Under the pieces are notes generated by a model. It had not been told where the DNA came from, made no database searches, and worked only from the letters and a program-made list of their open reading frames with translations. Shown in pieces: positions 3,431 to 39,837 of a stretch of 39,837 nucleotides of DNA (position 1 is its first letter; each line of letters opens with the position of its first letter). Source of the stretch: Escherichia phage pO103; sequence record OR204651.1; one strand, given 5' to 3'. Position numbers and translations under genes: made by a program.

Positions 3431-6082
3431 ATGACTAACGTAATCAATGCACCAAAGAATGACTTCTCTGACATCGCTAACGCAATCCAGCCTTACAACA
3501 TACTGGCTGACCATTACGGCGCACAGCTTGCAGCTACACAGCTTGAGTTGGAACATGAAGCGCACACCGAGGGCGAGAAGCGTTTCCTTAAGGCAATGGA
3601 GCGTCAAATCAAAGCGGGTGAGTTCGGTGACAACGCAGTGGCTAAACCTCTCCTGTCATCCCTCGCACCAAAGTTTATCGAGGCGTGGAACACTTGGTTC
3701 ACCGAAGTAGAATCTAAGCGTGGGAAACGTCCAGTGGCCTACAATCTGGTACAGAAGATTGCACCGGAAGCTGCCGCATTCATCACACTGAAAGTCACAC
3801 TGGCTTGTCTGACCAAAGAGGAATACACCAACCTACAATCGGTTGCAACTAAGATTGGTCGTAGCATTGAAGATGAGTTGCGTTTCGGACGCATTCGTGA
3901 CGAAGAAGCGAAGCACTTTAAGAATCACGTACAGGAAGCACTGAACAAGCGCGTTGGTATCGTCTACAAGAAAGCATTCATGCAAGCTGTAGAGGGCAAG
4001 ATGTTAGACGCTGGTCAACTGCAAACCAAGTGGACCACATGGACACCTGAAGAATCAATCCACGTTGGTGTACGTATGTTGGAACTGCTCATTGGGTCTA
4101 CCGGTCTCGTTGAGTTACACCGACCGTTTGCTGGTAACGTTGAGAAGGATGGCGAGTACATTCAATTAACCGAACAATATGTTGACCTTCTGTCTAAACG
4201 TGCTGGGGCACTGGCTGCAATCGCTCCGATGTACCAACCTTGCGTGGTCCCTCCGAAGCCTTGGACTTCTCCGGTTGGTGGTGGCTATTGGGCTGCTGGT
4301 CGAAAGCCTCTCTCTCTGGTTCGTACTGGTTCCAAGAAGGGACTTGAGCGTTACAACGATGTGTATATGCCTGAAGTTTACAAGGCGGTGAACATCGCAC
4401 AGAATACTCCTTGGAAGATTAACAAGAAGGTTCTGGCAGTGGTCAACGAGATTGTGAACTGGAAGCATTGCCCGGTTGAAGATGTTCCTGCTCTGGAACG
4501 TGGGGAACTCCCGGTCAAACCTGAAGACATCGACACGAACGAAGCGTCACTCAAAGCATGGAAGAAAGCGGCCTCCGCAATCTACCGCAAAGAGAAGGCT
4601 CGCGTGTCTCGCCGTATGAGCATGGAGTTCATGTTAGGTCAGGCCAATAAGTTCGCACAGTTTAAAGCTATCTGGTTCCCGATGAACATGGACTGGCGCG
4701 GTCGAGTGTATGCAGTCCCAATGTTTAACCCGCAAGGCAACGACATGACCAAAGGGCTGCTGACCTTGGCTAAAGGTAAACCGATTGGTGTCGATGGGTA
4801 CTACTGGCTGAAGATTCACGGTGCTAACACTGCTGGCGTGGACAAAGTGGACTTTGCAGAACGCATCAAGTTCATTGATGACAACCATGAGAACATCATG
4901 AGCGTTGCGGCTGACCCGATTGCTAACACTTGGTGGGCCGAGCAAGACTCTCCGTTCTGCTTCCTCGCGTTCTGCTTCGAGTATGCTGGAGTTCAACACC
5001 ACGGTATGAACTATAACTGCTCTCTTCCGCTGGCGTTTGATGGTAGCTGCTCCGGTATTCAGCACTTCTCCGCGATGCTTCGTGATGAAGTAGGTGGTCG
5101 TGCGGTTAACCTGCTACCAAGCAAGGAAGTCCAGGACATCTATCGTATTGTTGCCGAACGTGTGAACGAGATGCTCCGCGAAGCGGTAATCAACGGTACT
5201 GATAACGAAGTGGAGACCGTGACAAACAAGGACACTGGTGAAATCACTGAGAAGCTCAAGCTGGGAACGAAAGAGTTAGCTGGTCAGTGGCTGGCCTACG
5301 GTGTGACTCGCAAGGTCACTAAACGTTCTGTCATGACGTTGGCTTACGGTTCCAAAGAGTACGGCTTCCGCGACCAAGTTCTTGAGGATACCATTCAGCC
5401 AGCTATCGACGATGGCAAGGGATTGATGTTCACTCAACCGAACCAAGCTGCTGGCTATATGGCTAAACTGATTTGGGACGCTGTAACGGTGACTGTGGTC
5501 GCTGCGGTTGAAGCAATGAACTGGCTGAAGTCTGCCGCTAAACTACTGGCTGCTGAAGTCAAGGACAAGAAGACTAAAGAAGTTCTCCGCAAGCGCTGCG
5601 CGGTGCATTGGGTAACACCTGATGGCTTCCCTGTGTGGCAGGAGTATCGCAAGGCAGTACAGACTCGTTTGAACCTGATGTTCTTGGGTCAGATTCGTTT
5701 GCAGCCTACCGTGAACACCAATAAGGATAGCGGAATTGATGCACGTAAGCAGGAGTCAGGTATCGCACCTAACTTTGTTCACTCAATGGACGGTAGCCAT
5801 CTGCGAATGACTGTAGTGCGCTCCAATGAGGTCTACGGTGTGGAATCCTTCGCACTGATTCATGACTCATTTGGTACTATCCCTGCTGACGCTGGCAACC
5901 TGTTTAAAGCAGTGCGTGAAACGATGGTCAACACTTACGAAGAAAACGATGTACTCGCAGACTTCTATGAGCAATTCGCTGATCAGTTACACGAATCACA
6001 GTTAGACAAGATGCCTGAGATGCCAGCTAAAGGCGCTCTGGACCTGCAAGAAATCCTCAAGTCAGACTTCGCGTTTGCCTAA
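3431..6082 (+). CDS. 1: Gene 1 single-subunit DNA-dependent RNA polymerase
   Basis: 883 aa, same length as T7 RNAP; extensive recalled identity; specificity loop has T7-type NTNKDS. Confidence 0.98.
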   Translation: MTNVINAPKNDFSDIANAIQPYNILADHYGAQLAATQLELEHEAHTEGEKRFLKAMERQIKAGEFGDNAVAKPLLSSLAPKFIEAWNTWFTEVESKRGKRPVAYNLVQKIAPEAAAFITLKVTLACLTKEEYTNLQSVATKIGRSIEDELRFGRIRDEEAKHFKNHVQEALNKRVGIVYKKAFMQAVEGKMLDAGQLQTKWTTWTPEESIHVGVRMLELLIGSTGLVELHRPFAGNVEKDGEYIQLTEQYVDLLSKRAGALAAIAPMYQPCVVPPKPWTSPVGGGYWAAGRKPLSLVRTGSKKGLERYNDVYMPEVYKAVNIAQNTPWKINKKVLAVVNEIVNWKHCPVEDVPALERGELPVKPEDIDTNEASLKAWKKAASAIYRKEKARVSRRMSMEFMLGQANKFAQFKAIWFPMNMDWRGRVYAVPMFNPQGNDMTKGLLTLAKGKPIGVDGYYWLKIHGANTAGVDKVDFAERIKFIDDNHENIMSVAADPIANTWWAEQDSPFCFLAFCFEYAGVQHHGMNYNCSLPLAFDGSCSGIQHFSAMLRDEVGGRAVNLLPSKEVQDIYRIVAERVNEMLREAVINGTDNEVETVTNKDTGEITEKLKLGTKELAGQWLAYGVTRKVTKRSVMTLAYGSKEYGFRDQVLEDTIQPAIDDGKGLMFTQPNQAAGYMAKLIWDAVTVTVVAAVEAMNWLKSAAKLLAAEVKDKKTKEVLRKRCAVHWVTPDGFPVWQEYRKAVQTRLNLMFLGQIRLQPTVNTNKDSGIDARKQESGIAPNFVHSMDGSHLRMTVVRSNEVYGVESFALIHDSFGTIPADAGNLFKAVRETMVNTYEENDVLADFYEQFADQLHESQLDKMPEMPAKGALDLQEILKSDFAFA

Positions 6083-6089
6083 CGAAATC

Positions 6090-6112
6090 TAATACGACTC
6101 ACTATTGGGAGC
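6090..6112 (+). promoter_or_regulatory. Phage promoter phi1.1 (TAATACGACTCACTATTGGGAGC); followed by AT-rich region, candidate primary origin
   Basis: 22/23 match to T7 consensus; location equals T7 phi1.1A/B origin region. Confidence 0.85.
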
Positions 6113-6172
6113 CTACGGGCTTCCTAAACTTTAAGATAACTTTAAGTTCTAACTCTAAGAGGAAACAACAGT

Positions 6173-6322
6173 ATGCGTACCAACTTTGAACCAACCACTA
6201 AGCGCAACACCATCATCAATGAACATGGTGCTGAACGGCAGGAACGTAAAGACCGCATGAAGAAACGTCACAAAACAAAGCGTGGCAACTCTGAGAAACG
6301 CAACTGGAAGGAGGCACTCTAA
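6173..6322 (+). CDS. 1.1: Gene 1.1 small basic protein (49 aa)
   Basis: Hand-translated ORF MRTNFEPTTKRN...NWKEAL; below ORF-track cut-off; stop overlaps 1.2 start (TAATG); T7 gp1.1 is similarly small and basic. Confidence 0.6.
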   Translation: MRTNFEPTTKRNTIINEHGAERQERKDRMKKRHKTKRGNSEKRNWKEAL

Positions 6323-6594
6323 TGGGTCGCTTATACAGTGGTAACTTAATAGCATACAAAGACGCTATCGAACGACTTAAAGAAGACCACGATGCAAATG
6401 TGGTCGTTGAGACTTATCGCTATGAGGACTTCACACAACGACGGATGGTAGCCGGAGAGACACTTCGAGTGGTCTTACGGAATGGCTTAATGCTGACCGC
6501 TAAGTGTTTCGAACAGGATGATGCAGACGTTCGCTGTAATGCACAGACTGAATGGCTCCGCAAGGTACACAGTGATATGAAGCACTGGAAGTAA
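6322..6594 (+). CDS. 1.2: Gene 1.2 host dGTP triphosphohydrolase inhibitor
   Basis: 90 aa; N-terminus MGRLYSGNL matches T7 gp1.2. Confidence 0.8.
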   Translation: MGRLYSGNLIAYKDAIERLKEDHDANVVVETYRYEDFTQRRMVAGETLRVVLRNGLMLTAKCFEQDDADVRCNAQTEWLRKVHSDMKHWK

Positions 6595-6615
6595 TACGAC
6601 TCACTATTGCGAGAG
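6593..6615 (+). promoter_or_regulatory. Phage promoter phi1.3 (TAATACGACTCACTATTGCGAGA)
   Basis: Consensus -17 to -1 with variant initiating region. Confidence 0.75.
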
Positions 6616-8009: not shown

Positions 8010-8032
8010 CTATACGACTCACTATGGAGGAA
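8010..8032 (+). promoter_or_regulatory. Candidate phage promoter (phi1.5-like), variant: TATACGACTCACTAT-GGAGGA, one nt short before GG
   Basis: Core CGACTCACTAT present but -17 region and -1 deviate. Confidence 0.45.
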
Positions 8033-8039
8033 CAACCTC

Positions 8040-8120
8040 ATGCTATTTCTAATCGTCGCTATCATTGCTGCCACCTTTGCTCTCGTTATCATTGATGACA
8101 ACTGCTGGCCTGATTGCTAA
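8040..8120 (+). CDS. Small hydrophobic peptide, 26 aa (MLFLIVAIIAATFALVIIDDNCWPDC), gene 1.5 position
   Basis: GGAGG RBS 7 nt upstream; single predicted TM helix; below ORF-track cut-off. Confidence 0.35.
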   Translation: MLFLIVAIIAATFALVIIDDNCWPDC

Positions 8121-8147
8121 TATGACTCACATATGGAGGACACAACT

Positions 8148-8411
8148 ATGTTAAGACTTCACTTCAATAAATCTAATGGTATCTTTTCGGCTCGTGGTGC
8201 TGACCGCTCTACGGTTCTGGCCTCTGAGAAACACGCAGTCATCCCTAAAGTGCTTGGCTCGACCATTGAGTTAGCACCTCGTGTTCACGCTGTAATTACT
8301 ACTGGCTTATATAAAGAAGCGACCACTGGCTCCCGGCCTTTCATTCCGGTTCTCGTCACCCGTTTCCCTAAAGTCCGTCTGGTAATTGCGCGTATCAAGG
8401 AGGTGTTCTAA
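8148..8411 (+). CDS. Gene 1.6-like hypothetical protein (87 aa)
   Basis: GGAGGA RBS at 8135-8140; T7 gp1.6 is 88 aa at the same position. Confidence 0.55.
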   Translation: MLRLHFNKSNGIFSARGADRSTVLASEKHAVIPKVLGSTIELAPRVHAVITTGLYKEATTGSRPFIPVLVTRFPKVRLVIARIKEVF

Positions 8412-8878
8412 TGACTTCTTATGACGCCATGATTATCAAACTTATTAACATGAACGAAGGCAGTCCAGATCATTTGTCTAACTGTTCCTTCCACTGTGCT
8501 GGAGTTCCTTGTAGTATCTGCCCAGCCGGTTATGATGAGGATATGACATTAGGTGAAATCCGAGCGATGGACCCACGTGCTCCCATAATGCCGGAGAAAC
8601 CAGCAGAGGTAGCTCCTACAGAGGACCAACCACAAGATATAGAGGGTGTTCGGACTCCGAGCCACTATATGTTGTTTGACGACATTGAGGCTATCGAAGT
8701 GATTGCTCGTTCGATGACCCGTGAGCAGTTCAAGGGGTACTGCTTAGGGAATATCCTTAAGTATCGCCTGCGTGCTGGTAAGAAATCTGAACTGGCATTC
8801 TTAGAGAAGGACATGGCGAAAGCTGGGTTCTATGGTGAACTGTTCGAGAAACATAAGGACAAGTGCTATGATTATTAA
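8411..8878 (+). CDS. 1.7: Gene 1.7 nucleotide (dNMP) kinase homolog
   Basis: 155 aa; C-terminal region SHYMLFDDIEAIEVIARSMT.EQFKGYC.GNILKYRLRAGKKSELA.LEKD.AKA.FY.ELFEKHKDKCY matches recalled T7 gp1.7. Confidence 0.75.
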   Translation: MTSYDAMIIKLINMNEGSPDHLSNCSFHCAGVPCSICPAGYDEDMTLGEIRAMDPRAPIMPEKPAEVAPTEDQPQDIEGVRTPSHYMLFDDIEAIEVIARSMTREQFKGYCLGNILKYRLRAGKKSELAFLEKDMAKAGFYGELFEKHKDKCYDY

Positions 8879-9132: not shown

Positions 9133-9320
9133 GCAATTTAAACAAAGGGTCACTGGTCAACGGTGACAAGAAGTTCTTCGCAACGGTAGAAGGCCAAGGC
9201 CAATCGTTCGAAGTCCCTGTGTTCGCTATGTCTATCGAAGAGGCCAACGAGTTAGCTGAGTGGCAATATGTCCCGGCTGGCTTCGCAGTGACACGCATTC
9301 GTCCAGACCGAAAGGTTTAA
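9129..9320 (+). CDS. 2: Gene 2 inhibitor of host RNA polymerase (Gp2)
   Basis: 63 aa; [10 protein letters not shown]...FEVP...[14 protein letters not shown] matches T7 Gp2. Confidence 0.85.
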
Positions 9321-9340
9321 TAGGACTCACTATTGGGGAG
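9318..9340 (+). promoter_or_regulatory. Phage promoter phi2.5 (TAATAGGACTCACTATTGGGGAG); transcript 5-prime stem-loop GGGGAGAC...GTTTCCCC
   Basis: Consensus match; precedes SSB gene. Confidence 0.8.
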
Positions 9341-9393
9341 ACACATCGTTTCCCCCACTTTTAACTTTAAGAAACCTCAAAAGGAGAAACATC

Positions 9394-10095: not shown

Positions 10096-10515
10096 ATGAA
10101 CGTGCGGGAGAAAATCCTTGAGAGAATCAAGGTGACTCCTGCTGGATGTTGGGAGTGGACAGGTGCTGTGAACTCTAAAGGGTATGGTCAGGTATGGTGT
10201 GGAGACTCTAAGAAGACTCTATACTGTCACCGCATTATGTCCAACGCCCCAAAAGGTTCTACAGTCCTGCACTCCTGTGATAACCCATTATGTTGCAACC
10301 CTGCGCACCTATCAATTGGTACTCCTAAAGAGAACTCTGATGACATGGTGAATAAGGGTCGCTCTCACAAAGGATACAAACTATGTGATGAAGATGTGAT
10401 GGCTATTATAGAGTCCAGCGAGTCCGGCAAGCGCCTATCGCAGACCTATGGAGTCTCCCAACAGACTATCTGTGACATTAAAATGGGGAGGACTTATGGC
10501 AGGTTACGGCGCTAA
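10096..10515 (+). CDS. HNH-family endonuclease (homing-endonuclease-like), gene 2.8 position
   Basis: 139 aa; motif YCHRI...LHSCDNPLCCNPAHLSIGT plus C-terminal HTH-like segment; start coupled to 2.5 stop, 3-prime end overlaps gene 3. Confidence 0.75.
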   Translation: MNVREKILERIKVTPAGCWEWTGAVNSKGYGQVWCGDSKKTLYCHRIMSNAPKGSTVLHSCDNPLCCNPAHLSIGTPKENSDDMVNKGRSHKGYKLCDEDVMAIIESSESGKRLSQTYGVSQQTICDIKMGRTYGRLRR

Positions 10516-10948: not shown

Positions 10949-11400
10949 GTAAGGTACAATTCAAACCACGCGCTGTGACAGAAGCAATCTTTGTCCACTG
11001 TAGCGCAACCAAAGCGTCCATGAATGTTGGGCTGCGTGAAATCCGTCAGTGGCATAAAGAACAAGGCTGGCTCGATGTAGGCTACCACTTCATTATTCGC
11101 CGTGATGGGACAATCGAAGAAGGCCGTCCGGTCGATGTCGTTGGGTCTCACGTTAAGGACTGGAACAGTAAGTCAGTCGGTGTGTGCCTCGTAGGTGGTA
11201 TCGACGATAAAGGTAAGTTCGAAGCTAACTTTACGCCAGCACAGATGCACTCTCTTAAAGAGAAACTTGCAGACCTGAAGGACATGTATCCTGATGCAGA
11301 AATTAAAGCTCATCATGACGTGGCACCTAAAGCCTGTCCGTCCTTCAACTTGAGCCGCTGGCTGAAGACTGGAGAACTGGTTACAAGCGATTGGGGTTAA
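10945..11400 (+). CDS. 3.5: Gene 3.5 lysozyme (N-acetylmuramoyl-L-alanine amidase) / RNAP inhibitor
   Basis: 151 aa; AIFVHCSATK...REIRQWHKEQGWLDVGYHFII matches T7 lysozyme. Confidence 0.95.
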   Translation: MSKVQFKPRAVTEAIFVHCSATKASMNVGLREIRQWHKEQGWLDVGYHFIIRRDGTIEEGRPVDVVGSHVKDWNSKSVGVCLVGGIDDKGKFEANFTPAQMHSLKEKLADLKDMYPDAEIKAHHDVAPKACPSFNLSRWLKTGELVTSDWG

Positions 11401-11420
11401 TAGAACTCACTATGGGAGGA
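11398..11420 (+). promoter_or_regulatory. Candidate phage promoter phi3.8-like (TAATAGAACTCACTAT-GGGAGGA, one nt short), followed by GGGAGGACCGAAAGGTTTCTCCC stem-loop
   Basis: Core ACTCACTAT plus GGGAGG; immediately after lysozyme stop. Confidence 0.5.
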
Positions 11421-11470
11421 CCGAAAGGTTTCTCCCTTTGTTCGCTAAAATTGTATAAGGAGTAATCACT

Positions 11471-13679
<2,209 letters not shown>

Positions 13680-13686
<7 letters not shown>

Positions 13687-13702
13687 GACTCACTAATGGG
13701 AC
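13680..13702 (+). promoter_or_regulatory. Candidate phage promoter phi4.3-like (AAATAAGACTCACTAATGGGACA)
   Basis: Core GACTCACTA with 3-4 mismatches in -17 to -12. Confidence 0.45.
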
Positions 13703-13746
13703 AGACACTCTGTTCCAACTTATCAATCCTCTTAAGGAGAATCACA

Positions 13747-14525: not shown

Positions 14526-14548
14526 CTATTCAACTCACTAATGGGAGA
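14526..14548 (+). promoter_or_regulatory. Candidate degenerate phage promoter (CTATTCAACTCACTAATGGGAGA)
   Basis: Core ACTCACTAATGGGAGA intact, upstream half divergent. Confidence 0.4.
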
Positions 14549-18618: not shown

Positions 18619-18641
18619 TAATACGACTCACTATTGAGAGG
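18619..18641 (+). promoter_or_regulatory. Phage promoter phi6.5 (TAATACGACTCACTATTGAGAGG)
   Basis: Consensus match. Confidence 0.85.
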
Positions 18642-19246: not shown

Positions 19247-19645
19247 ATGGTTACAGTACATAAGTGCACAGAACGCGCGGCTGCTATTGTCTGGACTGTG
19301 GCGCACTTAGGGTTGCCAGAAGGGTTCACTACGTTAAGCGAGTACGCTGACTACGTGGATGGGCTTATGGATGACGCTGGGTACGAAGAGTTCTACTTTA
19401 AGAACGCCGAGGGTTATCCTGTGGCTTATGTAGCTCTCTGTATCAGCAATGACATACACCATAAGGGTGACATATTGGACATCACCAATATAGTCATTAA
19501 GCCGCGCTCCGGGTGTGCACCTTGTGTCTGGCGCTGGGTGTTAGCTGAGGCGACTCGTAGAGGTTGCCAGTGGGTCTCCCGTTGTGCACATGAACACGAT
19601 GGGTCAATTCGAAACGTATTCAAGAGGATATATAATCATGGGTAA
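19247..19645 (+). CDS. 7: Gene 7 host-range / virion protein
   Basis: 132 aa (T7 gp7 is 133 aa), AGGAGG RBS. Confidence 0.7.
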   Translation: MVTVHKCTERAAAIVWTVAHLGLPEGFTTLSEYADYVDGLMDDAGYEEFYFKNAEGYPVAYVALCISNDIHHKGDILDITNIVIKPRSGCAPCVWRWVLAEATRRGCQWVSRCAHEHDGSIRNVFKRIYNHG

Positions 19646-19943: not shown

Positions 19944-21551
19944 ATGGCAAGCTCACAGAAACGTGAAGGCTTCGCGGAGAATGGTGCCAAGGCGGTGTAT
20001 GACTCATTGAAGAACGACCGGAACTCCTATGAGACCCGTGCGGAAAACTGTGCGAAGTACACCATCCCTTCGTTGTTCCCTAAAGACTCCGACAACGCCT
20101 CTACTGATTATACCACTCCGTGGCAAGCAGTTGGTGCTCGTGGTCTGAACAACTTGGCCTCTAAGCTCATGCTCGCTCTGTTCCCTATGCAGACGTGGAT
20201 GAAGCTAACCATATCTGAGTTCGAAGCGAAACAATTGGTTGCACAGCCAGCCGAACTGGCGAAGGTCGAAGAAGGTCTCTCAATGGTCGAGCGAATCTTG
20301 ATGAACTACATCGAGTCAAACTCATACCGTGTGACACTCTTTGAGACCCTCAAGCAGTTGGTCGTTGCAGGTAACGCTCTGCTCTACATTCCTGAGCCTG
20401 AAGGCACTTACAATCCCATGAAGTTATACCGCCTGTCTTCTTATGTTGTCCAACGAGACGCATTCGGCACGGTACTACAGATTGTGACCTTGGATAAGAC
20501 TGCCTATGCAGCACTGCCAGAAGACGTAAGAAACTCTATGGACTCCGGTCAGGAACATAAAGGCGACGAAATGATTGATGTGTACACACACATTTATCTT
20601 GACGAAGAATCTGGTGAGTACCTCAAGTACGAAGAGATTGATGGCGTTGAAATTGATGGCACAGATGCTTCTTATCCGGTGGACGCTTGTCCGTATATCC
20701 CGGTTCGCATGGTGCGCATTGACGGAGAGTCATATGGTCGTTCTTACTGTGAGGAATACTTAGGTGACTTACGGTCCCTTGAGAACCTCCAAGAAGCTAT
20801 CGTTAAGATGTCAATGATTAGCGCTAAAGTTATCGGCTTGGTTAACCCTGCTGGTATCACACAGGTTCGTCGTTTGACCAAAGCACAGACTGGTGACTTC
20901 GTGTCTGGTCGTCCAGAAGACATCTCGTTCCTTCAGCTTGAAAAGGCCGCAGACTTCTCTGTAGCGAAAGCTGTGAGTGAACAGATTGAGGGCCGACTGT
21001 CCTATGCCTTTATGTTGAACTCCGCTGTGCAACGTACTGGTGAGCGTGTGACTGCCGAAGAGATTCGTTATGTCGCATCCGAACTCGAAGATACCCTTGG
21101 TGGTGTCTATTCGATTCTCTCACAGGAACTTCAGTTGCCTATGGTTCGTGTACTGCTGAAGCAACTTCAAGCAACCAATCAGATTCCTGAGTTACCGAAA
21201 GAGGCCGTTGAGCCAACTATCAGTACCGGGATGGAAGCATTGGGTCGCGGTCAAGACCTTGATAAGCTGGAACGTTGTATCGCCGCGTGGTCTGCTCTGG
21301 CTCCTATGCAGCAAGACCCGGACATCAACATTGCGACCATTAAGTTGCGCATTGCGAACGCTATCGGCATTGACACTTCTGGTATCCTTAAGACACCTGA
21401 AGAGAAACAACAGGAGATGGCTGAGGCTGCACAAGGTACTGCACTGGAGAACGCTGCTGCGTCTGCGGGTGCTGGTGCTGGTGCGTTGGCTACTGCAAGT
21501 CCTGAGAATATGCAAGCTGCTGCTGAACAGGCAGGCATGGTTCCAAATTAA
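19944..21551 (+). CDS. 8: Gene 8 head-to-tail connector (portal) protein
   Basis: 535 aa; long stretches identical to recalled T7 gp8. Confidence 0.97.
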   Translation: MASSQKREGFAENGAKAVYDSLKNDRNSYETRAENCAKYTIPSLFPKDSDNASTDYTTPWQAVGARGLNNLASKLMLALFPMQTWMKLTISEFEAKQLVAQPAELAKVEEGLSMVERILMNYIESNSYRVTLFETLKQLVVAGNALLYIPEPEGTYNPMKLYRLSSYVVQRDAFGTVLQIVTLDKTAYAALPEDVRNSMDSGQEHKGDEMIDVYTHIYLDEESGEYLKYEEIDGVEIDGTDASYPVDACPYIPVRMVRIDGESYGRSYCEEYLGDLRSLENLQEAIVKMSMISAKVIGLVNPAGITQVRRLTKAQTGDFVSGRPEDISFLQLEKAADFSVAKAVSEQIEGRLSYAFMLNSAVQRTGERVTAEEIRYVASELEDTLGGVYSILSQELQLPMVRVLLKQLQATNQIPELPKEAVEPTISTGMEALGRGQDLDKLERCIAAWSALAPMQQDPDINIATIKLRIANAIGIDTSGILKTPEEKQQEMAEAAQGTALENAAASAGAGAGALATASPENMQAAAEQAGMVPN

Positions 21552-21571
21552 TACGACTCACTAATGGGAGA
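21549..21571 (+). promoter_or_regulatory. Phage promoter phi9 (TAATACGACTCACTAATGGGAGA)
   Basis: Consensus match. Confidence 0.85.
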
Positions 21572-21620
21572 GACAAACAGTCCTCCCTTTGAGTTCAACT
21601 TTAAGAAGGAGATAACAATT

Positions 21621-22535: not shown

Positions 22536-22558
22536 TAATACGACTCACTATTGGGAGA
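22536..22558 (+). promoter_or_regulatory. Phage promoter phi10 (TAATACGACTCACTATTGGGAGA), with long structured leader before gene 10
   Basis: Consensus match; about 150-nt leader with stem-loops; strong RBS AAGGAGA. Confidence 0.9.
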
Positions 22559-23875: not shown

Positions 23876-23886
23876 TAACTATATGA

Positions 23887-23928
23887 AACCCCTTGGGTGC
23901 CTTTGCGGGTGCTTGAGGGGTTTTTTTT
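23887..23928 (+). terminator. T-phi-like terminator for phage RNAP (CCCCTTGGGTGCCTTTGCGGGTGCTTGAGGGG + T8)
   Basis: Hairpin plus T-run closely resembling T7 T-phi, directly after gene 10. Confidence 0.85.
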
Positions 23929-23956
23929 CAACTCACTAATGGGAGGACATTTAACT

Positions 23957-26982: not shown

Positions 26983-27005
26983 CAATACGACTCACTATTG
27001 GGAAG
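26983..27005 (+). promoter_or_regulatory. Phage promoter phi13 (CAATACGACTCACTATTGGGAAG)
   Basis: Consensus match. Confidence 0.8.
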
Positions 27006-30348: not shown

Positions 30349-33300
30349 GTGGATAAGTATAACCCGAACGAACCGCATGAATATGATGCGTTATTTCAAC
30401 AAGCTGCTGACACACATGGAGTCTCCTACGGCCTTCTTCGGAAGGTCGGTTGGGTAGAGTCCCGATTCAAACCTACGGCCCAATCACAAACAGGGCCACG
30501 AGGTGTCATGCAGTTCACTAAGGCAACTGGTCAGGCTTACGGCCTACAGTCTGATGAGGACTTCAACGACCCGGCTAAGTCTATTGATGCTGGTGCTCGT
30601 TACCTTGCAGACCTCGTTAAGAAGTACAATGGGGATGAACTGAAAGCTGCCCTTGCGTACAACCAAGGCGAGGGCCGAAACGGTAAGCCTCAACTGGAAG
30701 CCTACGACTCCGGTAACTTTGCTGGTATTGGTGATGAAGGACGTAACTATTTGCGCTCACTTCTGGATGTCGCTAAGTCTCCGAAGAGTGGTGACATTGA
30801 GTCATTTGGTGGTATCACCCCAAAGGGTAAAGGGATTCCGTTCGATGCTGCTATGAGTGGTATCGGGAAGAAAGGAAAGGTAACTACAGAACTCCCTGAG
30901 TCTCACTCAATGTCCTTTCAAGGTAAAGAACAGGCCGCTCCCAATCAGCCGTTCGGTAAAGACTATTGGGAAGCAAAAGGAACAACTCTTGACGAAGCCA
31001 ATGAGCGTTCAACCTTCTTCGGATTCGGTAGTGCTGCTGAAGCAGAACTCTCCAACTCAACCTTGGGCGTTGCCTTCCGTGCTGGTAAGCGTGACAATGG
31101 TTTTGATGTGCTCACTGATGTACTTCAACCGACACGGTTTAATAGCCACATTTGGTCGCCTGAAGAACTCGACAAGATTCGCAAAGAAGTGAAGAACCCT
31201 GCGTACATGAACGTTGTACTTGGTGGTTCCGCTGAGAACCTTGATGAGCTAATCAAGTTGGCTAACGAGAACTTCGAGGCTGACGCTAAGGCTGCTGAAG
31301 CTGGACTTGGTGCCAAGCTGTCTGCTGGCCTGATTGGTGCTGGTGTGGACCCGTTGACCTACGTCCCAATCGCAGGGACTACAGCCAAGGGATTCAAGCT
31401 GGTGAACAAGGCACTGATGGTTGGTGCTCAAGCTGGTGCACTCAACGTTGCCTCCGAGGGTCTGCGTACATCCGTTGCTGGTGGTGAGGCTCACTATGCT
31501 GAAGCTGCTCTTGCTGGTATGTTGCTTGCTGGTGGACTCACTGCGGTTGCTGATGGTGTTGCTGCTGGTCTCCGTAAGTCTGGTGCTGAGCAGGTTGAGA
31601 ACCCCTTTGCTGCTGCACAGATGCGCTTTGAGGCTCGTGAGACTGCACGTAACACTGGTGGATATGACGGAAGTCGTATGCCTCCTAGTGAAGACAGAGT
31701 GTTCTCACAGCACAACGGCGTTGAGTATGCTCCTCTCGAAACTGAACCGGGTGCGGTAGTCCTGAAGGATGGCTCAATCATTAGTGATACTAACTTGGCT
31801 AACCCAATGACTGCCAGAGAGTTCGCTGAAGTGGACCCTGAACGTGCTGCTTGGGGATTGCCTATGCGTGGACTAAGTGAAATTGGCTTGAAAACTCTAA
31901 GTTCAGAACACGCTGAAATCCGTGGTCTCGCTAAGGACTTAGTGCGCTCCCCTACAGGTATGGAGTCAGGCTCAAACGGTAAGTTTGGTTCTACTACATC
32001 GGACATCATAGAGAGACTGCGCAGTCTCAACCATCGAACCTACAATAACCTATATGGTGCAATGAAGGAAGCGATGGCTGACCCTGAGTGGTCTGTGGGC
32101 ATGTTCAAGAGTGGTGCTGAAGGTGCCCGTCAACAAATCTATCGTCGTATTAGTGAGGCTATCGAGAGACCTGAACTTCAGGCTAACTTGACCAAGGAAG
32201 AACGTAAGGTGATGGACATCGTGAAGGAACACTATGACCTCAAGCGTGAGATGATGGAGAACCCGTCGATGTTCGGTAACAAGGCCACCTCTATCTTCCC
32301 TAACAGTCGTCACAAAGGGACTTACGTTCCTCATGTGTACTCGCGGGAAGCCAAGCAGTTGTACTCACAGGTTCTTGGTGGCACTGATGGTTTACAGGAA
32401 GCAGTTGCCGCAAGTTTGATGGCATCATATCATGTACGTCCTGAAGTCAAGGCCCGTATTGATGAGTATCTACGTGAGATTCACGCTGATGAGTTCGAGA
32501 AGGCAACCAAAGGTGCACAAGCTGCTGCGGACGCTGAGAACTTCCTGAGAGGTGCTGAGGCTGCTCCGGTAATGCCTGACTCATTGGTGACTGGCGGTAA
32601 CTCAACTAGCATCACTAAGGTCTCTAACGGAGAACTCCAAGGTGATTACTTCGCTGGTAAGCGAGACTACTCTGGTGAGACTCCTTACAAGGTGGATGGT
32701 GATTTTGTCTATTATACAGCTAAGACCGCTGATGGCTCTGAGTTCGCGGTGGATGTGTTCACCAAAAAAGGTGACCACGTGGGTGGCGTGGAGTTTGCTA
32801 AACGTGAGGGCGATGTATGGCATAACCCAAGCCTTGAGGTGTCCGAGAAGTACCGCCGCAAAGGTATCGCTACAGAGATGTACCGCATTGCTGAGACCGA
32901 GAGTCCTGACTATGTGTATCGTGGTACAGACGAATCCGTTGGTGGCGTTCGTACCCCCGATGGTCAAGCATTCCGTAAAGCCTACGACTCCACCCCGGCT
33001 AAACCTTCAGAGCGCCAGAAGTTTGGCACAGGAGAGAAGGTGGAACCAAAGGTAGACGAAGAGGAAATGCTTATCCAGATGGCTGAGGAATACGCCATGA
33101 AAAAGGCATATGGTATTGCAAAGACCGATGAGTTCAACTCTTCAAGTGTCATTGACGATAACATTGAGGGTCTCGTAGGTATTGAGAACAACTCATTCCT
33201 TGAAGCCCGTAACCTATTCGATTCTGATGTACCAATCACTCTACCGAATGGACAACAGTTCTCTGTGAATGACCTCCGTGACTTCGATATGAAGCATGTT

Positions 33301-34860
33301 ATGCCAGCATATGACCGCCGTGTTGATGGTGATATTGCTATCATGGGAGGTACAGGCATGACTACTGCTGAACTCAAGGACGCTATTATGGCTCTTGATA
33401 AGAAGTCTGAAGGTAAAGGCACAATGAAAGGTGAAGTGGAAGCGCTTAAGGATTTCGTTAAGATTGTCACTGGTCGTGCTCGACGTAATCAGGATACTGT
33501 AGGTGACACTATGGTCCGTGCTCTGTCCGATATGTCCTTCTTTACGAAGAACGCATATATGGGCTTGCAGAACCTAACCGAAATCTCCGGTATGTTGCAG
33601 AAGGGTAATATCCGTGCGATGCTTCATGGCATTCCGGTACTGCGTGACTTAGCGTTCCGCAACAAGCCAGTCTCTGGTAGTGAACTCAAAGAACTCCACT
33701 CTATGGTGTTCGGTAAAGAGTTTGATGACTTAGTCCGACCGACTCGTCAAGACATCATTCAGCGACTCCGTGAGTCCACCGATACACCTGATGTTGCTGC
33801 AAAGGTTGTTGGGACCATTAAGCACACAACTCAAGAACTGGCGGCTCGCTCACCTCTGACCAAGTTCCTCAATGGTACGTCAAACTACCTTCTGGACATG
33901 GCCCGGCAGGGTGTGATGGGTGATGTGGTAACTCATGCTATTACTGGCAAGGGTGCCAACAAGTGGATTAAAGGTGACATGCTGAAGTCTGCGAGTATCT
34001 CTAAGGAACAGTGGGAGGGCATTCAGGCTCTCATCCGTGAGAACGTTACCCGTGGGGAAGATGGTAAGTTTACCTTCAAGGACAAGAAGGCTCTGGCTAA
34101 TGACCCTCGTGCTATGGACTTGTGGCGCTTGGCTGACAAGGTTGCTGATGAAACGATGCTTCGACCTCATAAGGTGTCCTTACAGGATTCCCATGCGTTC
34201 GGTGCACCTGCTAAGTTGGTCCTTCAGTTTAAGTCATTCGTAATCAAGTCGATGAACTCTAAGTTTATCCGCTCTGGTCACGAAGCCTTTAAGAACCATC
34301 GTGCTATGGACATGGCGCTGACCTATGCAATCTCTGGTGGTATCGCTGGCTCCTACTATGTGGCACAGGCCCACTTGAAGGCTGCTGGTCTTCCTAAAGA
34401 GCAACAGAATGACTACCTGAAGAAAGCTCTAGACCCGAAGATGATTGCCTACGCAGCGGCCTCCAGAAGTTCACACTTAGGGTCTCCGTTGAGTATCGCT
34501 AACTTCTTTATGGGTGCTGCTGGATACGACCAAGGTCTTATGGTTCGCTCTACGATTCTCCCTAAAGGAGAGGATAAGAAAGAACGGAACAAGGCGGTAA
34601 CTTCTCGTGACATGGGTGATTCCATTATGGGTGCTATTGGTGAACAGGTTCCTGCTCTTGGGTTCGCTGGTGCTACTTTCGCTGCTGGTCGAAATGCTTA
34701 TGGTGTCCTTACGGCTCCAAACAAAGTGACCGAGCGTGAGATGATGACTGGCTTAATGAACGCCCACAGAGAGATGATTCCTAACGACCCACTCTCCCAG
34801 CAAATGCTAATTAAGTTCTATGAGGCCAATGGTGTTCACCTTAAGTCTGACAAGAAGTAA
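30349..34860 (+). CDS. 16: Gene 16 internal virion protein D, N-terminal lytic transglycosylase domain; about 185 aa longer than T7 gp16; GTG start
   Basis: 1503 aa; N-terminus VDKYNPNEPHEYDALFQ with transglycosylase motif GWVESRF; GTG start 6 nt after AGGAGG; C-terminus matches T7 gp16. Confidence 0.95.
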   Translation: MDKYNPNEPHEYDALFQQAADTHGVSYGLLRKVGWVESRFKPTAQSQTGPRGVMQFTKATGQAYGLQSDEDFNDPAKSIDAGARYLADLVKKYNGDELKAALAYNQGEGRNGKPQLEAYDSGNFAGIGDEGRNYLRSLLDVAKSPKSGDIESFGGITPKGKGIPFDAAMSGIGKKGKVTTELPESHSMSFQGKEQAAPNQPFGKDYWEAKGTTLDEANERSTFFGFGSAAEAELSNSTLGVAFRAGKRDNGFDVLTDVLQPTRFNSHIWSPEELDKIRKEVKNPAYMNVVLGGSAENLDELIKLANENFEADAKAAEAGLGAKLSAGLIGAGVDPLTYVPIAGTTAKGFKLVNKALMVGAQAGALNVASEGLRTSVAGGEAHYAEAALAGMLLAGGLTAVADGVAAGLRKSGAEQVENPFAAAQMRFEARETARNTGGYDGSRMPPSEDRVFSQHNGVEYAPLETEPGAVVLKDGSIISDTNLANPMTAREFAEVDPERAAWGLPMRGLSEIGLKTLSSEHAEIRGLAKDLVRSPTGMESGSNGKFGSTTSDIIERLRSLNHRTYNNLYGAMKEAMADPEWSVGMFKSGAEGARQQIYRRISEAIERPELQANLTKEERKVMDIVKEHYDLKREMMENPSMFGNKATSIFPNSRHKGTYVPHVYSREAKQLYSQVLGGTDGLQEAVAASLMASYHVRPEVKARIDEYLREIHADEFEKATKGAQAAADAENFLRGAEAAPVMPDSLVTGGNSTSITKVSNGELQGDYFAGKRDYSGETPYKVDGDFVYYTAKTADGSEFAVDVFTKKGDHVGGVEFAKREGDVWHNPSLEVSEKYRRKGIATEMYRIAETESPDYVYRGTDESVGGVRTPDGQAFRKAYDSTPAKPSERQKFGTGEKVEPKVDEEEMLIQMAEEYAMKKAYGIAKTDEFNSSSVIDDNIEGLVGIENNSFLEARNLFDSDVPITLPNGQQFSVNDLRDFDMKHVMPAYDRRVDGDIAIMGGTGMTTAELKDAIMALDKKSEGKGTMKGEVEALKDFVKIVTGRARRNQDTVGDTMVRALSDMSFFTKNAYMGLQNLTEISGMLQKGNIRAMLHGIPVLRDLAFRNKPVSGSELKELHSMVFGKEFDDLVRPTRQDIIQRLRESTDTPDVAAKVVGTIKHTTQELAARSPLTKFLNGTSNYLLDMARQGVMGDVVTHAITGKGANKWIKGDMLKSASISKEQWEGIQALIRENVTRGEDGKFTFKDKKALANDPRAMDLWRLADKVADETMLRPHKVSLQDSHAFGAPAKLVLQFKSFVIKSMNSKFIRSGHEAFKNHRAMDMALTYAISGGIAGSYYVAQAHLKAAGLPKEQQNDYLKKALDPKMIAYAAASRSSHLGSPLSIANFFMGAAGYDQGLMVRSTILPKGEDKKERNKAVTSRDMGDSIMGAIGEQVPALGFAGATFAAGRNAYGVLTAPNKVTEREMMTGLMNAHREMIPNDPLSQQMLIKFYEANGVHLKSDKK

Positions 34861-34861
34861 T

Positions 34862-34884
34862 CAATACGACTCACTATTGGGAAG
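34862..34884 (+). promoter_or_regulatory. Phage promoter phi17 (CAATACGACTCACTATTGGGAAG)
   Basis: Consensus match; 5-prime hairpin GGGAAG...CTTCCC. Confidence 0.8.
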
Positions 34885-34929
34885 GCTAACACAGCTTCCC
34901 TTTATTATACCCAACTAAGGAGGTACATT

Positions 34930-36399
34930 ATGGCTCTTAATATTCGTACCGTAATGACTTACCCACTTACTGGCGCGGTAGATTTTCCTATCACGTTTGA
35001 GTATCTGGCCCGTAAGTTTGTCACGGTGACTCTCATTGGTAAAGACCGTAAAGAACTGGTTCTAAATCAGGACTTCAGGTTCACCACTAAGACTCAAATC
35101 ACAACTACTCGTGCATGGACTGCTGCTGATGGCTACCAGCTTATCGAGATTCGTCGCTTCACCTCTGCGACTGAACGTCTGGTTGACTTTGCTGATGGCT
35201 CTATCCTTCGTGCATTCGACTTGAACATTTCTCAGATTCAAACACTGCATGTTGCAGAAGAAGCCCGTGACTTAACAGCGGATACAATTGGTGTAAACAA
35301 CGATGGCAACCTAGATGCCCGTGGTCGCCGTATCGTGAACCTAGCGAACGCTGTGGATGATGGTGATGCTCTTTCATTTGGTCAAGTTAAGACCATGAAC
35401 CAGAACTCATGGCAAGCACGCAATGAATCCTTACAGTTCCGCAATGAGGCTGAGACCTTCCGTAACCAAGCGGAGGGCTTTAAGAATGAGTCCGGAACTA
35501 ACGCTACGAATACCTATAAGTGGCGTAATGAGGCTGAGGGGTTCCGTGATGAGGCCGAACAGTTCAAGAACACTGCGACACAACAGGCTACCGATGCTGG
35601 TAACTCTGCGGCTGCTGCTCACCAATCCGAGGTGAACGCTGAGAACTCAGCTACCGCTTCCGCTAACTCTGCTACCTTGGCAGAACAGCAGGCAGACCGT
35701 GCGGAACGTGAAGCAGACAAGTTGGGTAACTGGAATGCTCTTGCAGGGACGATACAAGATGTTTCTGGAGAGGATGTTACTTGGAGAGGAATACAGACAG
35801 CAAAGGGGTTCCAATTGATTGAGGGTGCTAATAAACCATCGTACATAGTTGGACGGGCGGATAACAGTAACTCTTGGTACGTCGGTAAGGGCACTGCAGG
35901 TTCTCCAGAGGTGGCCTTACACAGTTATGACCTCGACACCTCAATTCTCTTAAAAAGTGACCACATTGTATTAAACAAACCGCTAAATGTGAATGGGGAG
36001 GTTAGGACCCTGAACTCCGCATTACAAAACGACGGTGATATACGAGGCGGCAGATGGGGGGGTACACTAGGTGATACCATTCAAAGAAATCGTGTGAATT
36101 ATCAAAGGGTCTTTTCGGGTACGTGGTTGCAAGGTCAAACAGTTACATTCACAGATGCGCCAATAGGACGACAATTCATTATGATAGGAGTCAATACAGG
36201 AGCAGCCATAGAGTATGTATCAGCATGTACGCCAGTCGCTGGGGAAACATTCTGGGTAAATATCGGGAACTGGAGCTACAAAATAGGCACTTCACAGGAT
36301 GGTTGGGGGGCCGTTATACACGCATCACAGGATATCCATGGCGGAGTCCCTGGCGCAATTGCGGAGGTCTACGTTATCAGGACTGATTTAGATAAATAG
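34930..36399 (+). CDS. 17: Gene 17 tail fiber protein; conserved N-terminal domain, divergent C-terminal receptor-binding region
   Basis: 489 aa; first ~270 aa match T7 gp17 (FEYLARKFV, MNQNSWQARNE.LQFRNEAETFRNQAEGFKNES); remainder unlike T7. Confidence 0.95.
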   Translation: MALNIRTVMTYPLTGAVDFPITFEYLARKFVTVTLIGKDRKELVLNQDFRFTTKTQITTTRAWTAADGYQLIEIRRFTSATERLVDFADGSILRAFDLNISQIQTLHVAEEARDLTADTIGVNNDGNLDARGRRIVNLANAVDDGDALSFGQVKTMNQNSWQARNESLQFRNEAETFRNQAEGFKNESGTNATNTYKWRNEAEGFRDEAEQFKNTATQQATDAGNSAAAAHQSEVNAENSATASANSATLAEQQADRAEREADKLGNWNALAGTIQDVSGEDVTWRGIQTAKGFQLIEGANKPSYIVGRADNSNSWYVGKGTAGSPEVALHSYDLDTSILLKSDHIVLNKPLNVNGEVRTLNSALQNDGDIRGGRWGGTLGDTIQRNRVNYQRVFSGTWLQGQTVTFTDAPIGRQFIMIGVNTGAAIEYVSACTPVAGETFWVNIGNWSYKIGTSQDGWGAVIHASQDIHGGVPGAIAEVYVIRTDLDK

Positions 36400-39183: not shown

Positions 39184-39270
39184 TAGATAAGTATGCGGGA
39201 AAGGTGCATAGGTAAGCACTTAGTACCGCTACGTTACCGTTAAGTAACTTACTGATATACATGAAGAAAT

Positions 39271-39293
39271 TAATACGACTCACTATTGGGAAT
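39271..39293 (+). promoter_or_regulatory. Phage promoter phiOR (TAATACGACTCACTATTGGGAAT)
   Basis: Consensus match; same +1 to +8 as phiOL. Confidence 0.85.
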
Positions 39294-39451
39294 GGCACCC
39301 TAAGACAACTTAAAGACACTTAAAGACTGCATATGCAAAGTGCATACTTAGTGACTAACTCTAAGAGACCCTTACAGTGAGGGATGATAGTAATTGTAAT
39401 TACATCCCTAACTATCAGTGTAACCATCAAGTATAACAAGGAGGACGCTCT

Positions 39452-39607
39452 ATGCGATTACTATCCGTGCTTAAGACACTAGCAACGCATCGAGTGACCT
39501 ATAAATTTCTCGTTGTACTTGCTGCTTCCATTGGTCTCGCATCTAGTGTTGAACACATCGGTGAACTGGAGACTCTGCTTTGTTCTCTACTCACTTGTGT
39601 TCCTTAG
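39452..39607 (+). CDS. Gene 19.5-like small hydrophobic protein (51 aa)
   Basis: AAGGAGG RBS 7 nt upstream; position downstream of phiOR as T7 19.5. Confidence 0.5.
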   Translation: MRLLSVLKTLATHRVTYKFLVVLAASIGLASSVEHIGELETLLCSLLTCVP

Positions 39608-39635
39608 ACTGCTCATTGGCGCTTAGCGCGCTCTT

Positions 39636-39673
39636 AGTGATTATGGTCGATATACATCTTCCCTATAATCACT
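39636..39673. repeat. Inverted repeat AGTGATTAT ... ATAATCACT (9-bp arms, 20-nt loop) near right end; preceded by palindrome AGCGCGCT
   Basis: Direct reading; right-end location suggests role in concatemer processing or packaging. Confidence 0.5.
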
Positions 39674-39698
39674 GTAAGAAGTCAACTCTAAGAGTAAC

Positions 39699-39786
39699 CC
39701 TTATGTACCCTCTATGGTCTACAGGGTCTCTTAGGGTCTCTCACGTAGTCTCACCTTATGATAGCCACTCTGTGGTTAACCTTATG
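39699..39786. repeat. Right-end CCTTATG heptamer repeats (39699, 39754, 39780) and GGTCTCT direct repeats
   Basis: Same heptamer as left-end array. Confidence 0.6.
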
Positions 39787-39837
39787 AGATACTTGATGTA
39801 CCCCTTTAAGAATCCTACAGAAAAATCTGAGTGGGTA

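Follow-up and report, generated by a model that had tools for sequence, protein, structure and literature searches.

Is the polymerase of Escherichia phage pO103 tolerant of the bases just before the transcription start, or does it hold a preference of its own there? The question arises at positions 6090-6112, which read TAATACGACTCACTATTGGGAGC. A preliminary description of this DNA held that the strongest promoters differ from those of T7 at -1 and in their flanks, and proposed a polymerase tolerant at -1 and -2 together with a graded promoter hierarchy. The window, by which we mean the whole stretch of DNA analysed (39,837 bases, OR204651.1), holds the whole genome of a T7-like phage from the genus Berlinvirus. 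Its identity to other members (vB_ShiP-A7, 285P, Kvp1, FE44, BA14 and others) is 88-93%, and a search of the phage collection found no record nearer to it than these. We consider it quite likely that the sites are Berlinvirus promoters for the phage's own RNA polymerase, and that T at -1 is a selected preference fixed in this lineage and not relaxed specificity.

The promoter family with T at -1 is not new, as it has been annotated for Berlinvirus (BA14, Kvp1) since 2008. The GenBank records of BA14 (NC_011040) and Kvp1 (FJ194439) carry 16 and 14 annotated phage promoters, respectively, with the same consensus as the window. Lingohr et al. 2008 (PMC2579914) give promoter logos for Kvp1 and Berlin (Fig. 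2) and describe the Kvp1 promoters as closest to those of phage Berlin. A literature search with the exact 23-mer string gave no match, and a shorter string led to a paper on the PP74 polymerase (PMC11475235). For annotation, the sites are standard Berlinvirus phage-polymerase promoters with T at -1 as the genus consensus, which is routine. The correction that they call for is conceptual: -1 is fixed here, not loose.

The promoter set of the window

The core CACTAWWGGGA occurs 10 times in the window, always on the plus strand, with 0.06 occurrences expected by chance. An iterated PWM scan found 15 sites, each on the plus strand and scoring 26-39 bits, whereas no site in 20 shuffled genomes scored above 10.6. 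A sixteenth, weak site at 8118, on the same strand, is the ortholog of the annotated phi1.6 of BA14. The promoters lie at the canonical positions of the T7 group: phiOL, upstream of genes 1.1, 1.3, 1.5, 1.6, 2.5, 4, 4.3, 4.7, 6.5, 9, 10, 11, 13 and 17, and phiOR. Their consensus is TAATACGACTCACTATT-GGGAGA (here and below the hyphen separates -1 from +1), with a total information of 31.8 bits. Like other promoters of the T7 group (Studiervirinae), they form a repeated element of ~23 bp (-17 to +6) on the coding strand at gene junctions, in a genome that carries a cognate polymerase gene. Judged from sequence, they most likely serve the T7-like single-subunit RNA polymerase that the phage itself encodes (gene 1, 3431-6082). 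As promoters they belong to the Berlinvirus family (BA14, Kvp1, 285P, Berlin, PP74, vB_ShiP-A7), three marks of which are found in the window: a consensus with T (sometimes G) at -1, orthologous positions and flanks, and a polymerase of the Berlinvirus lineage.

The PWM scores fall into tiers; each interval below begins at -17. The highest score belongs to phi10 (22536-22558, TAATACGACTCACTATT-GGGAGA, 39.1 bits), the sole perfect consensus 23-mer in the window. At 37-38 bits follow phi9 (21549-21571, TAATACGACTCACTAAT-GGGAGA, 37.7), phi13 (26983-27005) and phi17 (34862-34884), which both read CAATACGACTCACTATT-GGGAAG and score 37.3, and phiOR (39271-39293, TAATACGACTCACTATT-GGGAAT, 37.1), the ortholog of BA14 phiOR. 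The flagged site itself, phi1.1 (6090-6112, TAATACGACTCACTATT-GGGAGC), starts 8 nt past the gene 1 stop and is the ortholog of phi1.05 of BA14 and Kvp1. It stands at 36-37 bits with phi6.5 (18619-18641, TAATACGACTCACTATT-GAGAGG, 36.2), which has A at +2, and phi1.3 (6592-6614, TAATACGACTCACTATT-GCGAGA, 35.8), which overlaps the end of gene 1.2. Lower down are phi2.5 (9318-9340, TAATAGGACTCACTATT-GGGGAG, 33.9) and phiOL (379-401, TAATGCGACTCACTATT-GGGAAT, 33.8; the ortholog of BA14 phiOL) at ~34 bits. At ~31 bits come phi4.3 (13681-13703, CAATAAGACTCACTAAT-GGGACA, 30.8) and phi4.7 (14526-14548, CTATTCAACTCACTAAT-GGGAGA, 30.5), the latter identical to the annotated phi4.7 of BA14. The tier of 27-29 bits holds phi1.5 (8010-8032, CTATACGACTCACTATG-GAGGAA, 28.9), phi11 (23924-23946, TTTTTCAACTCACTAAT-GGGAGG, 27.5) and phi3.8/4 (11398-11420, TAATAGAACTCACTATG-GGAGGA, 26.8); phi1.5 and phi3.8/4 have G at -1. 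The weak phi1.6 (8118-8140, TAATATGACTCACATAT-GGAGGA) reaches 14.8 bits (11.8 in the first scan, with a chance maximum of 10.6) and is present in seven of seven genomes.

This hierarchy is conserved among the relatives and mirrors the class II/class III pattern of T7, the score being a proxy for strength. The graded hierarchy proposed earlier is thus visible in the PWM tiers, but T7 has the same one. The T or A at -2, the mismatches at -17 to -11 and the variable +4 to +6 probably combine into a strength gradient like that between class II and class III. Several details of the preliminary description change with the full alignment. Its reading of the strong promoters holds in general, but phi6.5 (18619) reads TATTGAGAGG / CACTATTGAGAGG, with TATT-GAGAGG and not GGGA. 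The flank difference narrows to +4 to +6 (AGA, AAG, AAT, AGC, AGG), where the window departs from T7 class III, while the flank upstream (..gaaat) is shared with T7. Among the class II sites, the one placed at 13680 starts at 13681. The mismatches assigned to -17 to -12 do occur, at -17, -16, -13 and -12, but that range was too narrow, as they reach -11 (A at 11398 and 14526).

BA14 and Kvp1 share the consensus TAATACGACTCACTATT-GGGAGA with the window, and several of their 23-mers are identical to those of the window. Their promoter set also corresponds to that of the window junction for junction (phiOL, 1.05/1.1, 1.3, 1.5, 1.6, 2.5, 3.8/4, 4.3, 4.7, 6.5, 9, 10, 13, 17 and OR), with phi11 as in Kvp1. 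The differences are small. At phi1.3 and phi2.5 the window has TATT where BA14 and Kvp1 have TAAT, phi1.6 has an extra mismatch at -12, and the second promoter that accompanies gene 1.05 is absent. Gene 1.05 itself, present in BA14, Kvp1, 285P and PP74, is absent from the window (6082-6173); a single promoter instead of two therefore stands between genes 1 and 1.1, as also in vB_ShiP-A7 and Berlin. PP74, another Berlinvirus, agrees with the window in its set of 16 promoter sites and in their consensus.

The T7 class III consensus, TAATACGACTCACTATA-GGGAGA, is identical to that of the window from -17 to -2 and from +1 to +6. T7 also shares the two-tier arrangement, the gene-map positions and the specificity residues of the polymerase. 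The six consensus promoters of T7 (five of class III and phiOR) are identical 23-mers, whereas in the window only phi10 is perfect.

Two local features touch the weaker sites. A Tphi-like terminator hairpin, AAACCCCTTGGGTGCC..GGGTGCTTGAGGGGTTTTTTTT (-25.5 kcal/mol; 23885-23946, folded over 23881-23935), lies directly upstream of gene 11; a simple terminator scan missed it, and folding revealed it. Its U-tract forms -17 to -13 of phi11, which accounts for the upstream mismatches of this promoter. T3 and Kvp1 have a similar order, terminator then phi11. At phi1.5 and phi1.6 (8027-8042 and 8135-8150), the first transcribed bases, G(G)AGGA, also serve genes 1.5 and 1.6 as Shine-Dalgarno sequences and lie 7-8 nt ahead of the ATG (at 8040 for gene 1.5). 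The mRNAs from these two promoters would have almost no 5' leader, and the added Shine-Dalgarno constraint can explain their departure from GGGAGA.

Base usage at -1 and -2

Among the 15 sites of the window, -1 is T in 13 and G in 2, and never A or C. The 17 annotated T7 promoters have A in 16 and T in one (Fisher p = 5e-6), which bears out the reported difference from T7 at this position. CACTATAG and CACTAAAG occur nowhere in the window, and none of its 15 sites has A at -1. The T7-specific promoter form (Teseptimavirus, consensus TAATACGACTCACTATAGGGAGA) has this A (TATA-GGG) in its consensus and in every strong late promoter, unlike the window sites. The T7-type binding region from -17 to -5, TAATACGACTCAC, is read by R746, N748, R756, Q758 and the loop at residues 93-101; the consensus of the window is identical there. 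The information at -1 is 1.3 bits in the window versus 1.5 bits in T7. Both have 1.0 bit at -2, with T in 11 and A in 4 of the window sites and T in 12 and A in 5 of the T7 promoters. Position -2 is therefore variable, as had been stated, but likewise in T7. Since T7 itself shows both, the T/A choice at -2 and the graded hierarchy are ordinary properties of the T7 group and not distinctive.

The PWM finds 15-16 orthologous sites each in vB_ShiP-A7, 285P, BA14, Kvp1, Berlin and PP74; those of 285P, vB_ShiP-A7, Berlin and PP74 come from the scan, as these records have no phage-promoter annotation. For the tally across genomes we used a matrix in which the -2 and -1 columns were neutralised. In 101 sites from seven Berlinvirus genomes, -1 is T in 84 and G in 17, with no A and no C, but these genomes are related (88-93% identity), so that the sites are not independent and shared ancestry adds to the uniformity. 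Ten more Berlinvirus-type contigs, partially covered, gave 90 sites with T in 80, G in 9 and A in one. Applied to T7, the blind matrix finds each of the 17 annotated promoters (A 16, T 1); sites of the A type would therefore have shown up too. A scan biased toward T was considered as the source of the uniform T and rejected, since the matrix blind to -2 and -1 gives the same result. In addition, an exact match to the 21-mer with T at -1 was found in 17 IMG/VR contigs, 14 of Berlinvirus type and 3 of T7 type, most of them genome-sized.

An alternative, which we consider improbable, is that the polymerase reads -1 and -2 loosely, so that A would serve equally well and T would be a neutral base spread by ancestry or by gene conversion among promoters. 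Several observations on other T7-group phages fit it, as does the T/A variation at -2 in the window. T7 RNA polymerase on the exact -1 A to T variant of its promoter gave 73.3 against a wild-type mean of 169 +/- 19, or ~43%, from one barcode (Komura 2018, S2 File). The class II promoter phi2.5 of T7, TAATACGACTCACTATT-AGGGAA (CACTATT-AGGGAA), has T at -1, and so do its orthologs in relatives of T7. Two of the close ones (IMG/VR L043:5040-5062 and L037:8917-8939) have exactly TAATACGACTCACTATTGGGAGA, the Berlinvirus consensus 23-mer, as their phi2.5. Stenotrophomonas phage IME15 (L021), with a polymerase 90% identical to that of T7, is mixed at -1 in class II (A, T and C) and has A in every class III promoter. 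T3 promoters (AATTAACCCTCACTAAA-GGGAGA) have the same architecture with A at -1 in 8 and C in 6, never T. They differ from the window at -10 to -12, which are read by D748, and -2 is always A in T3; in the window, -2 varies between T and A. From the ~43% activity of T7 RNA polymerase on T, the phi2.5 of T7 relatives, IME15 and the A or C of T3, it follows that, in the T7 group, the base at -1 varies by lineage and modulates strength, with T fixed in the Berlinvirus lineage. The first three also mean that T7-type polymerases tolerate T at -1, so discrimination at this position does not hold for the family in general.

Within Berlinvirus, however, the tally speaks against relaxation. A is found in none of the 101 and one of the 90 sites, while the adjacent -2 flips between T and A several times at orthologous sites (phi1.3, phi2.5); at -1 the only changes are from T to G. 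The information at -1 matches that of T7, and one Berlinvirus polymerase, that of PP74, reportedly gave no output after a one-base promoter change, as discussed below. The evidence thus favors a -1 preference that was switched and is constrained in Berlinvirus, and the tolerance at -1 proposed earlier is not supported. Besides T, only G would be tolerated, as seen in weak class II promoters, in which transcription may start one base earlier.

The gene 1 RNA polymerase and the proposed sensing of -1

Gene 1 (3431-6082, plus strand) encodes a single-subunit RNA polymerase of 883 aa, which shares 98% identity with BA14 gp1 and 76% with T7 gp1. It is 97-99% identical to the polymerases of BA14, Kvp1, 285P, vB_ShiP-A7 and Berlin, and 93% to that of PP74. 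The catalytic residues D812, Y639 and H784 are conserved. The T7-type residues that read the promoter bases are kept as well, namely K95-R96-G97-K98-R99 in the AT-rich loop and R746, N748, R756 and Q758 in the specificity loop, as are V237 and W422. Their retention explains why the -17 to -5 region is identical to that of T7, although the enzyme as a whole is further from T7 (76%) than that of T3 is (82%), which has D748. With the duplex-binding half (-17 to -5) of T7 type and the reading residues kept, promoter binding most likely proceeds as in T7, by homology.

The intercalating hairpin (230-245) is different. It reads HRQNAGVVGQDSETIE in T7 and HRPFAGNVEKDGEYIQ in the window, with N233F, G238E and Q239K fixed in seven Berlinvirus enzymes. 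At 76 positions in all, T7, T3 and IME15 agree with each other and differ from the residue fixed in the seven Berlinvirus enzymes, including N233F, G238E, S128K, T133N, Y418M, S628K and Q786M. A literature search for structural statements on T7 RNA polymerase and the template base at -1 (W422) yielded nothing of use. T at -1 lies in the region melted at initiation, and the preference for it would be matched to this polymerase lineage, probably acting as a discriminator against T7-type promoters.

Experiments on relatives bear on this idea. In a screen of 26 polymerases (PMC11475235), the PP74 RNA polymerase ('R6') was the best enzyme and highly active on its cognate promoter TAATACGACTCACTATTGGGAA, which matches the phiOR type of the window at 22 of 22 positions and the phiOL type at 21 of 22. 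The authors report that a single nucleotide change in the promoter abolished its output in a coupled reticulocyte system; the initially transcribed sequences may also have differed between the templates, and the result applies to an enzyme whose AT-rich loop differs from that of the window polymerase (R96S, K98P). Among the 26 library promoters, none is one base away from that of PP74, whereas the T7 control promoter is, at -1. By elimination, then, the changed promoter would be that of T7, with A at -1. For BA14, cross-transcription experiments (Mertens & Hausmann 1982, as cited in a 2026 paper, PMC13600099) are described as showing a functional difference from both T7 and T3. PP74 gene 1 (L010, 2059-4710) has KSGPRP in the AT-rich loop, versus KRGKRP in T7 and the other Berlinvirus enzymes, and the PP74 promoters still have TAATAC at -17 to -12.

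A stronger form of the lineage-fixed preference would make -1 a near-binary switch of specificity between the polymerases of Berlinvirus and T7, despite identical duplex-reading residues. We put this forward tentatively and consider it somewhat less probable than its opposite. The -1 base (template A versus T) might be sensed in the melted strand, during open-complex formation or synthesis of the first bond, through lineage-fixed changes such as N233F, G238E and Q239K in the hairpin, or S128K, T133N and Y418M. Such discrimination would be asymmetric, since T7 RNA polymerase retains ~43% of its activity on T.

The fixed -1 together with the PP74 result suggests that T7-family enzymes with identical recognition loops may be separated by the base before the start. 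This bears on the prediction of cognate promoters for new single-subunit polymerases, as used in mRNA manufacture, and on the design of orthogonal T7-like expression pairs. If true, the switch at -1 would amount to a one-base orthogonal polymerase/promoter pair with its specificity determinant outside the known recognition loops.

Start-site register, 5' hairpins and genome context

The assignment of T to -1 depends on the register, and we regard it as very unlikely that the conserved T lies elsewhere because transcription starts at the T or one base downstream, or because the spacing is unlike that of T7. The 23-mers of the window align to those of T7 without gaps, and 13 of the 15 sites match at 22 of 23 consensus positions. 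The alignment of all sites, which had been proposed as a check, thus keeps the register, and the recovery of all 17 T7 promoters by the matrix blind to -1 and -2 points the same way. T7-family polymerases have a strong preference for a purine start, usually G. One-base ambiguities do exist at 8010, 11398 and phi1.6. The label 'one nt short' is apt for 8010 and 11398, which read CACTATG-G in the fixed register. A gapped alignment for all sites was rejected, being justified only for 11398 and possibly for 8010.

Predicted RNA folding offers a second view of the start. Six predicted transcripts open in a stable hairpin that pairs from the first G after -1 onward (z -1.8 to -5.1). They belong to phi1.1 (6107-6124), phi2.5 (9335-9355), phi3.8/4 (11414-11436), phi4.3 (13698-13716), phi9 (21566-21587) and phi17 (34879-34900), all identified by folding on the plus strand; T7 phi10 and phi17 transcripts behave alike. 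The predicted folding energy is -13.3 kcal/mol for the phi1.1 hairpin and -13.0 kcal/mol for that of phi2.5.

Across seven Berlinvirus genomes, compensatory changes keep these hairpins. The phi17 hairpin is GGGAAG..CUUCCC in the window and GGGGAG..CUCCCC in Berlin, and that of phi1.05/1.1 is GGGAGCC..GGCUUCC in the window and GGGAGACCC..GGGUUUCCC in BA14 and Kvp1. At phi2.5, one added G is paired by one added C. This conservation supports the assignment of +1 and explains the variation at +4 to +6. At phi1.1, phi2.5, phi4.3, phi9 and phi17 the hairpin begins at the first G after the T, and the T is unpaired in most orthologs, which argues against a shifted register. The folded sequences thus support a predicted transcription start at +1, the first G after -1.

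The exception is phi3.8/4 (11398, CACTATG-GGAGGA). Its hairpin gains ~3.7 kcal/mol in seven of seven genomes when the G at '-1' is included, and the BA14 annotators moved a promoter by a single base. Both the hairpin gain and the register picked by these annotators fit a start one base upstream, which gives the 'one nt short' reading of this site independent support. These points, with the ambiguities at 8010, 11398 and phi1.6, are what speaks for a shifted register.

Finally, T at -1 could be kept for another reason, either to insulate the promoters from the T7-type polymerases of co-infecting relatives or as part of an overlapping DNA signal; shared hosts among related phages and the unused T7-type promoter annotated in T3 make cross-recognition a real issue in the group, but T7 RNA polymerase at ~43% on the -1 T promoter makes for poor insulation in that direction, and no common coding or structural signal spans the 15 sites, some of which overlap gene ends while others are intergenic, so we give this explanation hardly any weight.

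The genome around the promoters has the gene order of T7 and BA14. A terminal direct repeat was sought between its ends (1-400 against 39238-39837) and none was found, the sole similarity being that between the phiOL and phiOR promoters. In the relatives the terminal repeats are ~180-230 bp, and the record is therefore probably trimmed or collapsed at its ends.

Two ORFs resemble the HNH homing endonuclease of gene 2.8. The first (10096-10515) sits at the T7 position and is 80% identical to T7 gp2.8 and 36% to the BA14 copy. The second (13099-13686) is a more divergent copy, and its end overlaps the phi4.3 promoter. The internal virion protein D, gp16 (30349-34860), has 1503 aa, compared with ~1315 aa in BA14 and T7. 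Its best local match covers only the first ~710 aa, and long versions are also found in PP74 (1502 aa) and vB_ShiP-A7 (1644 aa). Mosaicism with T7-like phages appears at 34930-36399, 8411-8878 and 19247-19645. The gp1.7 of the window aligns better with that of T7, and the window has a homolog of gene 7, 46% identical to T7 gp7, a gene that the BA14 annotation does not contain. In the tail fibre gp17 (34930-36399), the N-terminal ~294 aa are 76% identical to T7 and 52% to BA14.
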